Part shown: positions 55,903-62,801 of the stretch, one piece after another | Layout: the number at the start of each line of letters is the position of its first letter | Position numbering within the stretch: position 1 is the stretch's first letter | Source: a virus | Reading direction: 5' to 3' (one strand) | Virus record (IMG/VR): IMGVR_UViG_3300007513_000010 | Length of the DNA: 64,000 nt | The notes under the pieces: generated by a model | Told to the model about the DNA's origin: nothing | Databases searched by the model: none | What the model saw: the letters and a program-made list of their open reading frames with translations, nothing else | Program-made: the position numbers and the translations under genes

Positions 55903-56973
55903 ATGGCAGTTGACTTCAATACATTCGTAAATATCGTTGAACACGTAACAGACGTGCGTAAGCCAGTGCTTTTGCGCGGACGTCACGGGGTTGGTAAATC
56001 AACTGTAGTTTATCAATTTGCAGAGAGCAAGGGTCTCCCGGTAGTTGAAAGGAGGGCCTCTCAAATGACAGAGGGGGATCTCGTGGGCTTGCCAGAGATT
56101 GAAGGAGAATCAACTAAGTTTAATCCTCCAGACTGGTATAAAAAGGCTTGTGATATGCCCGTTGTTCTTTTCCTAGATGAAGTCGACCGCGCCACTCTGG
56201 AGGTTAGGCAGGGTATTTTTGAATTAACTGACAGCAGAAAGCTAAATGGTCATAACTTGCATTCCGATACTCTAATCTTTGCTGCTGTAAATGGAGGAGA
56301 GCATGGAGAACAATATCAAGTTGGTGAAATGGATCCAGCAGAATTGGATCGCTGGACTGTTTTTGACTTGGAACCCTCGGTTGAGGACTGGCTGAGCTGG
56401 GCTTCTGAAGGCGATATTTCAACTGAGGTTTGGGACTTTATCAATCAGAACCGAGTGCACCTGGAACATAGTGATGATTTTGAACCTAACAAGGTCTACC
56501 CTTCTCGTCGTTCGTGGGAGCGTTTAGACCAGTGCTTAACTTCCGCAGAACTGCTAAGTGAGTCTTCGCCTGTCTTGTACAACTTGACTGCTGCATTTTG
56601 TGGCTTTGAGGCTGCGGTGGCATTTAACGATTTTATCGCTAATTATGATCGTCAAGTCACTCCGGAGGACATTCTAGTTAATGGGGACTTTAGCAAAGTC
56701 GGGGACTTTGGGATCAACGACCACTCGGCCTTAATTGAAAAGTTTGAGGCAAGTGAGTCCTTCAAGGAAGAACTAGAGCAAACCCAGGTAAACAACTTGG
56801 CTCGATACTTCCTGATGCTTCCTTCAGAGGTGGCGATGAAGCTATGGAGCGTCCTTGGCTCCGGCGCCCTGGACAACACAATTAAGCTACACCAGGCAAC
56901 TGTTGATGATAAGTCAGTATCAGAATATCTGGTTGAAATTTTAGCTGGAGAGCAAGGTAAGGAAAGCAAATGA
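55903..56973 (+). CDS. MoxR-like AAA+ ATPase
   Basis: GRHGVGKS, LFLDEVDR, AAVN, MDPAELDRW and PSRRSW. Confidence 0.92.
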   Translation: MAVDFNTFVNIVEHVTDVRKPVLLRGRHGVGKSTVVYQFAESKGLPVVERRASQMTEGDLVGLPEIEGESTKFNPPDWYKKACDMPVVLFLDEVDRATLEVRQGIFELTDSRKLNGHNLHSDTLIFAAVNGGEHGEQYQVGEMDPAELDRWTVFDLEPSVEDWLSWASEGDISTEVWDFINQNRVHLEHSDDFEPNKVYPSRRSWERLDQCLTSAELLSESSPVLYNLTAAFCGFEAAVAFNDFIANYDRQVTPEDILVNGDFSKVGDFGINDHSALIEKFEASESFKEELEQTQVNNLARYFLMLPSEVAMKLWSVLGSGALDNTIKLHQATVDDKSVSEYLVEILAGEQGKESK

Positions 56974-58187
56974 CCCAGGCAGCAACAACGAGCAAGTTTG
57001 ATTTGAATATGCACACAGCTCGGCTGTTAATGGATGAACCTTTCTTCGCAGCCATTTCACGTAGGATTGACAAGAGGGCTTCAACCGCACTCCCCACCGC
57101 GGGAGTGATGGTTAACCCGAAAACTTCCCAGTTTGAGCTGCTTTATAATCCAGAGTTTTTTGAAAAGCTAACGGATGACGAACGTCGTGATGTTCTCAAG
57201 CACGAATATTATCATATTGTGTTCTTGCATGTTACGAGCCGGCTGCCGGCTGGCGTGCACATGAAGCTGTGGAATATTGCAACCGATCTGGCTATCAATT
57301 CACACTTGTACAATCTTCCTGAGGGTGGCCTGATCCCTGGCGAAGGTGCTTTTGAGAGTCTCCCACGTGGGAAATCTGCAGAGTGGTACCTCGCCCAGCT
57401 CCCAGAGGTGTTTAAGTCGTCTCCGAACCCCGAAGGTTCAGAGGATTCTGACTCTGGAGGTGAGAGTCAGGGCGGATCATCGGAAGGCGACCTACCTGAT
57501 ACTTTAGATGATCATAGTGGTTGGGGCGAGTGTACGCAAGAAGCAAAAGATATGGCTCGCGAGCGATTGAAAGACATTGTAAGAAAAGCAGCAGATGAGT
57601 GCTCGAAGTCTTCGAATTGGGGATCTGTATCTGCCTCAGTGAAGCAAGAGATAATTAAGACACTTCAGAGTAAGGTTTGTTGGAAGAAGCTTTTAAGGTA
57701 TTTTGTGAAAACCTCCCAAAGAGCCAACCGCTCTGGAAGTATGAAAAGGATTAACAGGCGTTATCCCTATATTCACCCTGGTCGCAAAACAAATAGGGTA
57801 GCACAGGTTGCAATTAGTATTGATCAGTCTGGATCCGTGGATAACGAGATGCTTTCGATGTTCTTTGCAGAACTTAACAAGCTCGCAGAAATTGCAGAAT
57901 TTACAGTCATTCCTTTCGATACGCGCGTTGATGAGAACCTAGTGTATGTTTGGAAGAAGGGGATGAAAAAGAAGTGGGAGCGCGTCATGTGCGGAGGGAC
58001 AGACTTTAACCCTCCTACCGAATACGTTAACCAAAGGGGTTTCGACGGTCACATTATTCTAACAGATCTTTGTGCTCCAAAGCCAAAGTCAAGTAAGTGT
58101 CAACGAATGTGGATGACTACTCCGTATTTTGCAGAACGCCCGTACTTTGAAACTAAAGAGAAAATTGTAGCAATCAGTGATAAGTAG
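56970..58187 (+). CDS. Metallopeptidase-like plus vWA domain protein (DUF2201 type), partner of the AAA ATPase
   Basis: HEYYH, WNIATDLAIN, IDQSGS, GGTDF and ILTD. Confidence 0.9.
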   Translation: MTQAATTSKFDLNMHTARLLMDEPFFAAISRRIDKRASTALPTAGVMVNPKTSQFELLYNPEFFEKLTDDERRDVLKHEYYHIVFLHVTSRLPAGVHMKLWNIATDLAINSHLYNLPEGGLIPGEGAFESLPRGKSAEWYLAQLPEVFKSSPNPEGSEDSDSGGESQGGSSEGDLPDTLDDHSGWGECTQEAKDMARERLKDIVRKAADECSKSSNWGSVSASVKQEIIKTLQSKVCWKKLLRYFVKTSQRANRSGSMKRINRRYPYIHPGRKTNRVAQVAISIDQSGSVDNEMLSMFFAELNKLAEIAEFTVIPFDTRVDENLVYVWKKGMKKKWERVMCGGTDFNPPTEYVNQRGFDGHIILTDLCAPKPKSSKCQRMWMTTPYFAERPYFETKEKIVAISDK

Positions 58188-58211
58188 GGGTTTGTAATGA
58201 AATGGGGAAAA

Positions 58212-58668
58212 ATCACCTCCATCATCGTTTTAGGGGTGGTGATCTTAGCTTCAATAGGGTTTTTCCTTTGGTGTGTGCTGCCAAAGGAAAAATACTGGTT
58301 ATAGTCACTAAATTATCAGGGCGCAAAGAAGAGTTGTTCTTAGTCACCCTTTGACCAGTTGAGGGTTAAAAACAAAGTATCCGTGCGCGTATGTCTAACT
58401 CGCGTCGACTTTTGACATCAGAATTGTTCAGGCTTACTAACTAAGTTGCTGCGAAAGAAAATAAAATTAAGATAGGCTGGCGAAACATTGCGGCGAGGAC
58501 AGCATGTCTCACAACTTGGGAGTATAATTTAGTGATGATAACTGTTTCATTGGGGTTTATATACAAATTTTTACTGGCAATATCTATTTTTTTTGGTATA
58601 CTCACAGTATTTTTATATTTTGAACAGTAGTTAGGATAGGTGCGTAAAATCTTACGCACATTTCCAAC
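58212..58668 (+). ncRNA. Candidate large structured non-coding RNA (family unassigned, strand assumed)
   Basis: Multiple strong helices, including a 12-bp perfect long-range stem (58305-58316 with 58524-58535), a 12-bp hairpin (58260-58292) and an 8-bp hairpin (58640-58659). No long ORF. Confidence 0.45.
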
Positions 58669-58704
58669 ATCAGAGGGTTTCGGCTTGGGGTAATTGCTGT
58701 TATA

Positions 58705-59130
58705 TTGGGCTTTTTATATGCCAATTTTTTGGATTGGGGTACACATATATTGTTGCACAAACCGCGCGGCAAATCAAAATTAAAATTTCACTGGAAGCAT
58801 CACAGGATTGCCAGAAAGAACCATAATCGCGATCCGGATTATAAATTAAAAGTGTGGCATAATGAGACGAAAATAACCGTTGCTGCCATGATTCTTCATG
58901 CGCCTCTTCTGTTCTATTTTCCTGTATTTGCTGGTGTAGTTCTGGCTTATGCTACGGTGTACATCTTTCTACATCGAAAAACTCACGAGCATGTAGAGTT
59001 TTTTAAGAAATGGTGCCCCTGGCATTACGAGCATCACATGGGTAAAAATCAAAATGCTAACTGGTGTGTTGTTTGTCCGCTCATGGATCACATAATGGGA
59101 ACAAGAGAGAAGTGGCTAGAAAAGGAGTAA
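58705..59130 (+). CDS. Fatty acid hydroxylase / sterol desaturase family protein
   Basis: His boxes HILLH, HWKHH, HRKTH and HYEHH, plus NW and MDHIMGT. Start codon uncertain. Confidence 0.85.
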   Translation: MGFLYANFLDWGTHILLHKPRGKSKLKFHWKHHRIARKNHNRDPDYKLKVWHNETKITVAAMILHAPLLFYFPVFAGVVLAYATVYIFLHRKTHEHVEFFKKWCPWHYEHHMGKNQNANWCVVCPLMDHIMGTREKWLEKE

Positions 59131-59392: not shown

Positions 59393-59764
59393 ATGGGCTA
59401 CAGATCAGAAGTTTGCATCGCTTTGACCGATGATGCAGTAAGAGTACTCAGCACGATTCTGGAACATTTGCCAGCTTCTCATGAAGCGAGAAATCTTCTG
59501 AGAGATGCACAAATTCAACCGGGCTACCTTTCCGACTTCCAAGCCCACAAGGACTCAAGCAAAGATTGTGAACTTAAACTGTATTGGGACTATGTTAAGT
59601 GGTACGAGGGGTATGAATGTGTTGATTTTGTTGAAACTTTCTTGCAGGAAATTCCTCACGAAGATTACAGGTTTGTTCGCGTCGGCGAAGAATCAGATGA
59701 TGTGGAAGAAAGGGGCGACTACTACGATTCGGATGTTTTCGTTCGGAGATCAATATCATGGTAG
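59393..59764 (+). CDS. Conserved hypothetical phage protein
   Basis: MGYRSEV...VKWY...RVGEESDD pattern. Confidence 0.7.
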   Translation: MGYRSEVCIALTDDAVRVLSTILEHLPASHEARNLLRDAQIQPGYLSDFQAHKDSSKDCELKLYWDYVKWYEGYECVDFVETFLQEIPHEDYRFVRVGEESDDVEERGDYYDSDVFVRRSISW

Positions 59765-61727: not shown

Positions 61728-62801
61728 ATGAACTTTCTAAGTGAGAAAGACTTTTTTCAATATATAGAAAATCTCGAAGATTTTGGCTGGAGCACTTCCA
61801 CGCTGGAATGTGACCCCGCCCAATCCCACGAGAGGGTTCGATTTCCACGTCGGTTTGTGCATATGATTTGTAAGAGATGTTCGGGCAAGAAAGAAGCTTT
61901 GCACCCTTCCTACATCTACGACCCTGCACAGGCAGAGCTTAGTGCAGAGAGCGGTCTTAAGGAAAATACCAAAATCGTTATTGAAACCAGGGATCATAAG
62001 AGCAAGAGGTTCATAAGCGGCGTAAGTGATTATCTCTCGAACTACGAGTATGAGAGAGAAGAGTGGAAACAACAATCTTTTTCTTTTTTACCAACCGTCG
62101 TAACATTGATGGTTGACATTCAGGATTTAAACAAAATTGATGAATGTCGGACGTGCAAGAAAATAGACGAACTTGTTGAGATTATAGAAGAACAAAACGT
62201 CAATCCTATTAATAGTGGGGACAGGCTATTTGAAGAGCTTTTGTCTCCATTGAGGTTGGCAACCTGTCAGTTATCTTTGCCTGGTGTTGATATTAAACCT
62301 AAGCTGGGAAGATTTGCGGCGACCTGCTTGTCTCACGGCAACTTCTCCGGTCACATAAATGTTAGGACCGGTCTTGTCGATGGCCTTTGTCCGGAATGCT
62401 TAAGATTAGAAAAGGGGTCTATCGGAGAGTCGTTGTTGAGAATAGTATTGGAGGAGTTTACATCTTGCAGCTGGTCTAGTGTGCGACCAGACTTTCTGAA
62501 GAATCCTAAAACTGGATACAACCTTGAATTGGATTGCTACAATCGAAAACTTAATGCTGCATTTGAATTTCAAGGTCGGCAACATTACGAACCTATTGAG
62601 TTTTTCGGCGGCGAAGAAACTTTTGTTAAGCAAGTAGAAAGGGATGAGTTAAAAACTCGATTGTGTGAGTTAAATGATGTTAAGTTGTTTAAGATCGACG
62701 GTCGAAGATGTCCCAAAGATAAGGCAAAAGCAAAGTCCTTTTTATTAAAAGTTGTAAAGAAAGTTTTAAAGAAAGAACTGGACTTTACCACTGAATTCTG
62801 A
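61728..62801 (+). CDS. Zn-ribbon plus PD-(D/E)xK (Vsr/DUF559-like) putative free-standing endonuclease
   Basis: CxxC pairs and SIGE...LELDCYN..LNAAFEFQGRQHY...RDELK..LC. Confidence 0.75.
   Translation: MNFLSEKDFFQYIENLEDFGWSTSTLECDPAQSHERVRFPRRFVHMICKRCSGKKEALHPSYIYDPAQAELSAESGLKENTKIVIETRDHKSKRFISGVSDYLSNYEYEREEWKQQSFSFLPTVVTLMVDIQDLNKIDECRTCKKIDELVEIIEEQNVNPINSGDRLFEELLSPLRLATCQLSLPGVDIKPKLGRFAATCLSHGNFSGHINVRTGLVDGLCPECLRLEKGSIGESLLRIVLEEFTSCSWSSVRPDFLKNPKTGYNLELDCYNRKLNAAFEFQGRQHYEPIEFFGGEETFVKQVERDELKTRLCELNDVKLFKIDGRRCPKDKAKAKSFLLKVVKKVLKKELDFTTEF

Follow-up and report, generated by a model that had tools for sequence, protein, structure and literature searches.

What occupies the gap of some 500 nucleotides (nt) that follows a pair of AAA and vWA genes in an uncultured marine phage is the question raised by the IMG/VR record IMGVR_UViG_3300007513_000010, of which one stretch of 64,000 nt, here called the window, was analysed. 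An earlier note, made from the letters of the window, had placed at 58212-58668 a candidate large, unclassified structured RNA, in a gap described as devoid of long open reading frames (ORFs). As judged by comparison with related phages, positions 58298-58542 (core 58331-58517) of the plus strand encode a member of a previously unclassified pseudoknotted RNA family. The proposal thus held in its essentials, since Rfam contains nothing that matches the element or its relatives, and homologues with compensatory base changes, whose absence the note had named as refuting, were found; about half of the inner helices proposed with it were wrong. As for coding content, the part of the gap that is truly non-coding runs from about 58305 to 58531, and the two small ORFs beside it, of 35 and 31 amino acids (aa), have homologues.

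The novelty of the element was assessed by scanning the window, and relatives from two of the subfamilies described below, main and compact, with Rfam, both at the gathering threshold and at E up to 10. None of 4227 Rfam families matched the element in the window, the tRNA, tmRNA, RNase P, 6S, GOLLD, ROOL and HEARO models included, and over the whole window only three ordinary tRNAs were reported, all elsewhere than the element. GenBank phages gave no DNA match to the stretch, and the vWA protein is at most 29% identical to those of cultured phages. In IMG/VR, 172 contigs encode a relative of this protein, 80 of which were examined, and in the closest ones (vWA protein 62-71% identical) a conserved segment of 200-270 nt follows the vWA stop codon, with or without the hydroxylase gene that comes next in the window. 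A covariance model built from 15 sequences (R1) gave the window 79.9 bits (E 1.7e-19, the E-values being rough) and weak matches in distant relatives, which led to two further subfamilies, compact and minimal; a second model, R2, scored the window at 67 bits, the alignment starting at 58332 with R2 and at 58352 with R1. In addition, a pattern scan of marine metagenomes yielded 48 contigs with 33 distinct cores, TARA scaffolds among them, and in all about 70 related marine phage sequences carry the element.

Other searches returned little. An exact 16-mer scan gave mostly unrelated matches, and the degenerate UGGYG..loop pattern mostly chance matches in viral contigs; in bacterial and archaeal genomes, the matches listed for this pattern were only GC-rich coding sequence (for example, a conserved Streptomyces gene), Rfam found nothing in 18 of these bacterial and archaeal pattern loci, and among the matches listed there is no evidence of cellular copies. 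A literature search with the sequence string retrieved primers only, and a 2026 preprint mapping prokaryotic non-coding space has phages outside its scope. As far as these comparisons reach, the family is found only in a single lineage of uncultured marine phages with genomes of about 190 kb, within which the element is single-copy and accessory: two complete relatives, of 185-190 kb, have none anywhere and two others carry exactly one copy, the window also contains one, and in L003 and L016 (L-numbers denote the related loci) the element is absent and the intact vWA gene abuts the next gene.

The architecture of the family was derived from 25 viral contigs and the 48 marine metagenome contigs. 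The elements are short, about 110-190 nt, form a junction of several helices and consist, in this order, of a long closing helix, an A/U-rich joiner, hairpin C, an optional variable stem (V2), an A-rich strand, the sequence UGGYRA and hairpin E. The loop of hairpin C forms a pseudoknot of 5-6 base pairs (bp) with a downstream strand located immediately 5' of the invariant UGGYRA, and the loop of hairpin E, purine-rich and 10 nt long, has the consensus G(G/A)YRAGRACA in all subfamilies. Closing helices of 13-19 bp are typical, their sequences being unrelated between genomes and their complementarity kept. Three subfamilies can be distinguished. In the main one, the 5' end has an optional domain made up of a hairpin right after the stop codon and a helix with a variable arm; hairpin C, GCGCG/CGCG, has a 12-nt loop, AUU-GYCUAU-AAC, whose pseudoknot partner is AUAGRC, and this is followed by UGGCGA, by hairpin E with the loop GGYGAGGACA and by the 3' strand of the closing helix B. 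The compact subfamily (L113, L122, L146, L165, L206 and L333-335) is GC-richer and has a core of about 110 nt, and the minimal subfamily comprises L027, L028 and L077/078. V2 varies: across the family it may be long, with inserted mini-hairpins, or missing altogether, and the minimal subfamily has none or a tiny one. One mini-hairpin, GTGCCTACGGGCATCGAAAG, about 20 nt long and with a UACG tetraloop followed by GAAA, was seen in the arm of the 5' domain of L013 and L015, in V2 of L001 and at the start of the gap of L010; it looks like a mobile structural module, set at different sites within or beside the RNA in different phages.

The fold is established by covariation in a structure-blind MAFFT alignment of 25 sequences, where the 16 pairs tested were those of hairpin C, the pseudoknot and the inner hairpin E. 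In this alignment 93.3% of the cells are paired, against 71.8% after shuffling, a level reached by none of 500 shuffles, and sliding the partners by 1-3 columns lowers pairing to 29-39%. The helix of hairpin C is 94% paired, with five of its six pairs changed on both sides, and the pseudoknot 97.3%, again with five of six pairs varying on both sides. Helix B was followed within the main subfamily, where all ten pairs vary on both sides and 91.9% are paired, in a model-fitted alignment that leans towards the structure. Moreover, in 32 of 34 sequences a 6-mer of the loop complements the six bases in front of UGG (13% for shuffled partners), and 24 distinct complementary combinations of the two pseudoknot strands were counted. 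At two positions G-U pairs are common (10 of 23 and 11 of 25), which identifies the plus strand as the structured one; furthermore, the lengths of the elements vary by non-multiples of three and 22 of 25 members have stops in all plus frames, so that this is not coding sequence. By eye, the variable base of UGG[C/U]GA and the second base of the E loop read C-G in most members, U-A in L007 and L012 and U-G in L206, so these two positions may also covary.

The copy in the window has the following parts.

58298-58316, plus strand: 5' arm of the outer closing helix, a 19-nt inverted repeat specific to the window.
58331-58337, plus strand: 5' strand of closing helix B, GAGTTGT, with an alternative register, CCA-GTTG, at 58355-58361.
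58346-58366, plus strand: hairpin ACCCTT/GAGGGT (58346-51 and 58361-66) inserted in the joiner J1, obtained by folding and present in the window only.
58385-58405, plus strand: stem of hairpin C, GCGCG (58385-89) with CGCGT (58401-05), around the 11-nt loop TATGTCTAACT.
58393-58397, plus strand: 5' strand of the pseudoknot, GTCTA, in the loop of hairpin C, with its partner at 58473-58477.
58406-58452, plus strand: variable region V2, weakly structured in the window and a stem-loop in relatives.
58453-58471, plus strand: A-rich joiner J2 (GAAAGAAAATAAAATTAAG), conserved at the DNA level in relatives.
58472-58483, plus strand: 3' strand of the pseudoknot, ATAGGC (58472-77, of which TAGGC, 58473-77, is paired), and the invariant TGGCGA (58478-83).
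58485-58507, plus strand: stem of hairpin E, ACA-T-TGC with GCA-TGT, around the 10-nt loop GGCGAGGACA (58492-58501).
58511-58517, plus strand: 3' strand of closing helix B, ACAACTT.
58524-58542, plus strand: 3' arm of the outer closing helix, which includes the GTG (58532) and the ATG (58535) of the next ORF.

All the core parts of the main-subfamily architecture are thus found in the window, and its hairpin E stem is fully compensatory with respect to the GTC-A-AGGC/GCCT-GAC of its relatives. The optional 5' domain is absent from the window, as it is from L007, and the 19-bp outer helix stands in its place; this repeat, already described, was recovered exactly, with 17 Watson-Crick pairs and one G-U pair among 19 positions and 207 nt between the arms, and a Shine-Dalgarno sequence, GGGAG (58519-23), lies directly 5' of its 3' arm. 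Regarding the inner helices, GAGTTGT (58331-37) with ACAACTT (58511-17) turned out to be the closing helix of the family. The hairpin ACCCTT/GAGGGT does fold, and its restriction to the window puts it beyond the covariation test, a comparable insertion in J1 being carried by L028. TCTTAGT/ATTAAGA found no support, and neither did GCTTA/TAGGC, since the partner of TAGGC (58473-77) is GTCTA (58393-97), which belongs to the loop of a hairpin that had been overlooked. The flanking pairings ATCACC/GGTGAT, the perfect hairpin at 58260-58292 and ACTGTTtCA/TGAACAGT were placed inside small ORFs and form no part of the conserved RNA. An alternative pairing of the B and V2 strands was also considered and dropped, as it is not conserved.

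The surroundings of the element in the window comprise the features below.

55903-56973: AAA ATPase gene, preceding the vWA-like gene.
56970-58187, plus strand: gene of a metallopeptidase-like and vWA-like protein (DUF2201_N/DUF2201 in Pfam; PHROG 1314 and 1297).
58197-58304, plus strand: 35-aa transmembrane ORF, sm1, taken from the ORF list.
58535-58630, plus strand: conserved 31-aa transmembrane ORF, upstream of the fatty-acid-hydroxylase gene.
58640-58659, plus strand: hairpin GTGCGTAA-AATC-TTACGCAC, from the inverted-repeat search (fold z-score, z, -6.4).
58684-59130, plus strand: ORF of the fatty-acid-hydroxylase family (PF04116 in Pfam).

Across the family, a positional pattern is established on both sides of the element. 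On the 5' side, most members have 0-15 nt from the upstream stop codon to the closing helix or, where the main subfamily has it, to the optional 5' domain; in L002 and L005 the distance is 22-30 nt. The few bases that separate this stop codon from the RNA showed no promoter-like motif, which makes co-transcription with the upstream gene plausible. The link to the MoxR AAA/vWA pair that had been suggested is not a general one: in the main subfamily the element comes after the vWA gene, the compact subfamily follows the gene of a 124-aa protein (a homologue of the window ORF 59393-59764) or that of a 270-aa protein, and the minimal subfamily follows various small genes. Clustering of the neighbouring genes gave no constant partner, most compact-subfamily loci having been left out by the filter.

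On the 3' side, the sequence depends on what comes next. Where no ORF follows, the flank is U-rich, with 6-10 T in the first 12 nt, and in the loci without the hydroxylase gene and in the minimal subfamily a run of U4-9 begins 1-3 nt past the closing helix, the 5' strand of which is often A-rich in these loci. The closing helix and the U-tract together look like the outline of an intrinsic terminator in which a folded domain has replaced the loop. Where a ribosome-binding site or an ATG follows, the first 12 nt contain mostly 0-3 T (6 in L005, L012 and the window); in the loci with the hydroxylase gene, 0-15 nt separate the closing helix from the ribosome-binding site or start codon of the 31-aa ORF, and in the window and L007 the helix runs into the next start codon. 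In six loci of the compact subfamily (L113, L122, L146, L165, L333 and L334), conserved sigma-70-like promoters (TTGACx, 17 nt, TATAAT-like) are located 30-50 nt past the RNA, which therefore lies at the end of a transcription unit. An extra CTTGACATTCTCTTTACA box, also in the compact subfamily, partly forms the 3' strand of the closing helix. In L004 (5260-5860), the slot of the RNA holds a different ORF of about 200 aa, which looks like a multi-pass transmembrane protein, and the site after the vWA gene would therefore be a hotspot for accessory insertions.

The reading that we favour, and to which we assign roughly even chances, is that the RNA is a cis-acting module at the 3' end of a transcript or between cistrons. 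For its transcription, termination and gating, and for a ligand or partner of its conserved core, we infer the following from the comparison of sequences. The RNA would be made as a 3' continuation of the transcript of the upstream gene, and its closing helix would juxtapose the upstream stop codon with the sequence that follows, either a U-tract or a start codon. In most relatives, those with a U-tract, helix and tract would act as an intrinsic terminator with the folded domain as its "loop"; in the window and the other hydroxylase loci, it is the ribosome-binding site and start codon of the next ORF that would be brought next to the helix. The folded core would decide whether the strands of the closing helix meet, and the domain would set the formation or stability of the 3' end of the transcript, or gate downstream translation. 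In the window, where the sm1 stop codon (58302-58304) falls within the 5' arm of the outer closing helix, ribosomes terminating at this codon would melt the helix and free the start at 58532/58535.

Several points weigh against this proposal. A plain terminator or stabiliser needs no invariant UGGYRA, no conserved 10-nt loop and no covarying pseudoknot, and these surplus elements imply that the core must recognise something which a cis role does not name. A helix around a domain of 100-200 nt is not a canonical terminator hairpin, and the compact subfamily has only U-rich flanks with no clean U-tracts. Any insertion into a compact phage genome would show equally tight gene spacing, and two complete relatives manage without the element. 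Finally, the plus strand of the window element folds no better than shuffled sequence (z -0.97), and the minus strand folds somewhat better (z -2.9); the evidence for the structure is therefore comparative and not thermodynamic. Since a cis role leaves the recognition by UGGYRA and the E loop unexplained, a trans-acting RNA, a ligand sensor and a ribozyme keep some probability. It is, in our estimate, unlikely that the domain represents a new functional class of RNA, be it a ribozyme or protein-decoy RNA of early infection or a sensor in the position of a terminator loop, where folding or the binding of a ligand or factor may decide whether the distant strands of the stem meet.

The alternative that survives best, although we hold it to be somewhat unlikely, is a stable non-coding RNA that acts in trans. 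It would come off the 3' end of an early transcript, for example through an RNase III cut within the long closing helix or because transcription ends at the U-tract, and serve as decoy or partner of a protein of the host or the phage; since its occurrence in the early region is accessory and patchy, a part in anti-defence or host takeover is conceivable. Stable RNAs and RNase III substrates typically have perfect closing helices of this kind, 13-19 bp long, and UGGYRA and the loop G(G/A)YRAGRACA, both single-stranded, resemble recognition surfaces. The single-copy, accessory element, missing in two complete relatives, sits at different genome positions in the different subfamilies, and the want of a consistent neighbour gene is contrary to a gene-specific cis regulator. 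Nevertheless, no promoter-like motif of its own was recognised and the RNA starts a few bases past the upstream stop codon, no co-occurring partner protein emerged from the clustering of the neighbouring genes, and in the hydroxylase loci it abuts or overlaps a start codon, which suggests an effect in cis.

A riboswitch-like sensor, in which a small molecule or ion would stabilise the closing helix and thereby switch termination or, in the window, the occlusion of the ribosome-binding site, is doubtful. The order of its elements is that of a four-way-junction aptamer such as SAM-I, the near-invariant nucleotides are clustered in joiners and loops, and one and the same domain is joined to two downstream "platforms", a U-tract or a ribosome-binding site with a start codon. 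However, the genes downstream are mutually unrelated (the hydroxylase, KOW/SH3-like mini-proteins and unknowns), a promoter stands between the RNA and the next gene in the compact subfamily, and a P1 stem that can switch is far less stable than closing helices of 13-19 bp; moreover, no conserved alternative (anti-terminator) pairing was detected and no Rfam riboswitch matched at E up to 10.

Very unlikely, on the features of the sequences, is a catalytic RNA, either a new self-cleaving ribozyme that would process the early transcript or a reduced derivative of a group I intron core, the latter echoing the P3/P7 resemblance pointed out in the earlier note. The compact pseudoknotted core with few invariant nucleotides is like that of small ribozymes common in phages, and hairpin C, the pseudoknot and V2 do follow one another in the strand order of P3-P7-P8. 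In addition, the pseudoknot GYCUAU/AUAGRC of the main subfamily and the AGAC before it presumably resemble the P7/J8-7 consensus of group I. What survives of the resemblance is this topology alone: no Rfam ribozyme or group I model matches, there is no P4-P6 domain, only 1-3 nt separate the stem of C from the pseudoknot strand, and the P7-like sequence is lost in the compact and minimal subfamilies. Furthermore, the element follows a stop codon and is not inserted in a gene, and the relatives without it have an intact vWA gene abutting the next gene, which speaks against membership of the group I introns.

Most improbable of all is an element acting as DNA (an invertible segment, a miniature transposon or a site of replication or recombination) or an antisense small ORF, as might be read from the 19-bp inverted repeat flanking 207 bp, the fold of the minus strand beyond shuffled sequence, the stop-free minus-strand frame that spans the element in some relatives and the 72-aa minus-strand ORF at 58441-58659, because the inverted repeats differ in every genome around a conserved interior, which is the opposite of transposon ends, the element is single-copy per genome, among the public runs listed only DNA contigs from four samples of one study contain the stretch, identical and in one orientation with no inversion or deletion joints (weak evidence, as contigs drop rare variants), the many G-U pairs would turn into A-C mismatches if the opposite strand or the DNA duplex were the functional form, duplex DNA offers no account of a pseudoknot between loop and strand that occurs in 24 compensatory combinations, and the antisense ORF is rejected by element lengths that vary by non-multiples of three and by the broken minus frame of the window.

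Other likenesses were tried and set aside. The E loop as a mimic of a Shine-Dalgarno sequence, binding the anti-Shine-Dalgarno, or of the sarcin-ricin loop was rejected, the complementarity or similarity not being kept across members; J2 as an (ARN)n site for Hfq was rejected, the site being absent in the compact subfamily; and a Y-RNA-like stem was dropped, the similarity being coincidental.

With regard to the neighbouring genes, sm1 has a homologue only in L001 (52% identity). The perfect hairpin at 58260-58292, 12 bp long with z -4.7 and thus correctly described in the earlier note, is contained in this ORF near its stop, and it is missing in the L001 homologue. The 31-aa ORF has counterparts in L001, L002, L005-L008, L012 and L018, that is, in all the relatives with a hydroxylase gene, and its product could be a candidate subunit of the hydroxylase. 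The hairpin at 58640-58659, which had also been noticed, was found in the interval between this ORF and the hydroxylase in every hydroxylase-bearing locus, with some compensatory changes; on this comparison, it is an element separate from the pseudoknotted RNA family.

The hydroxylase itself has an unusual start. Conserved coding (LGV[IV]xGxLLGF...) sets in at CTT 58684, upstream of TTG 58705, which is the first canonical start. In the start region (58672-58705 in the window), all nine hydroxylase loci (the window, L001, L002, L005-L008, L012 and L018) keep GAGG, 7-8 nt and C-TTG-GGG-TAR, where the TTG is shifted from the frame by one base and runs into GGG and a stop. An in-frame stop immediately precedes the CTT in L008, L012 and L018, and the ORF of L005 has no canonical start upstream of the first His box. 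Translation may begin at the out-of-frame UUG and slip by -1 on G-GGG when it reaches the stop, or the start may be unconventional in another way. Elsewhere in the related loci, a conserved motif, CATAnTTAtnnTATG, is located just upstream of the start of the p65 homologue (L009, L011, L013-L015 and L080), and its end is the start codon of a KOW/SH3-like mini-protein gene; a phage-specific promoter and a signal for leaderless starts are possible readings. Also, a 357-aa ORF at 61728-62801 of the window, between tRNA genes, matches the homing-endonuclease/HNH PHROG families phrog_559 and phrog_9084.

The interest of the family lies in the combination of an unambiguous pseudoknot, three subfamilies spread among abundant uncultured marine phages (TARA and other ocean metagenomes) and an unusual placement, in which a folded domain takes the position of a terminator loop or fills the space from one stop codon to the following start. 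Time and again, orphan structured RNAs whose covariation is strong and whose tertiary core is conserved have proved to be riboswitches, ribozymes or RNA-protein machines. Control of termination or translational coupling by the fold, if confirmed, would be a new design of gene control in phage early operons; a role in trans would place the RNA among the few known phage RNAs with an effect on the host; and if it is a sensor within a terminator, a ribozyme or a decoy, its mechanism would have no described counterpart. Moreover, the family is small and well defined, with elements of about 110-190 nt, and amenable to direct biochemistry and structural work.

Among known systems, the element comes close to intrinsic terminators and to the terminal structures of 3' untranslated regions, since it is located directly past a stop codon and many relatives have a stem with an A-rich 5' and a U-rich 3' strand and U4-9 after 1-3 nt; it differs from terminators in that its "loop" is a conserved pseudoknotted domain of 100-200 nt, against 3-8 nt, and in that the copy in the window leads into a start codon instead of a U-tract. 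The T7 RNase III sites and lambda sib are phage intercistronic hairpins of processing and retroregulation. Like them, the element has a long double-stranded stem between early genes, a possible RNase III target that could control the stability of the upstream message, whereas they are simple irregular hairpins with no conserved pseudoknotted core. With the aptamer of SAM-I (the S-box, RF00162) it shares a closing helix, the pairing of a hairpin loop with the joiner that leads to the last hairpin, and a third stem that varies; in contrast, it gives no match to the model, it has other conserved nucleotides and a much longer closing helix, and it lacks a context of methionine or S-adenosylmethionine genes. 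Its position is 3' rather than 5', away from the 5' leader of functionally related genes that is the usual riboswitch location, and the genes downstream are unrelated. From group I introns (RF00028), whose P3-P7-P8 order is reproduced by covarying parts, it is set apart, besides the missing P4-P6 and the missing model match, by a spacing of 1-3 nt from C to the pseudoknot in 32 of 32 parsed members, by having neither a P1 splice-site helix nor an exon context and by the loss of the resemblance in the other subfamilies. Miniature transposons and invertible segments are characterised by features that it does not show, as there are no sequence-conserved terminal repeats and a single copy is present in the window and in each of two complete contigs. 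Lastly, a catalogue of more than 8000 candidate structured RNAs from IMG/VR, averaging 67 nt, supported by covariation and in many cases overlapping terminators (PMC10690425, 2023), draws on the same data source and likewise describes orphan structured motifs in phage contigs. Among phage structured RNA motifs, the element described here is a new RNA family, part of which that catalogue may already include.

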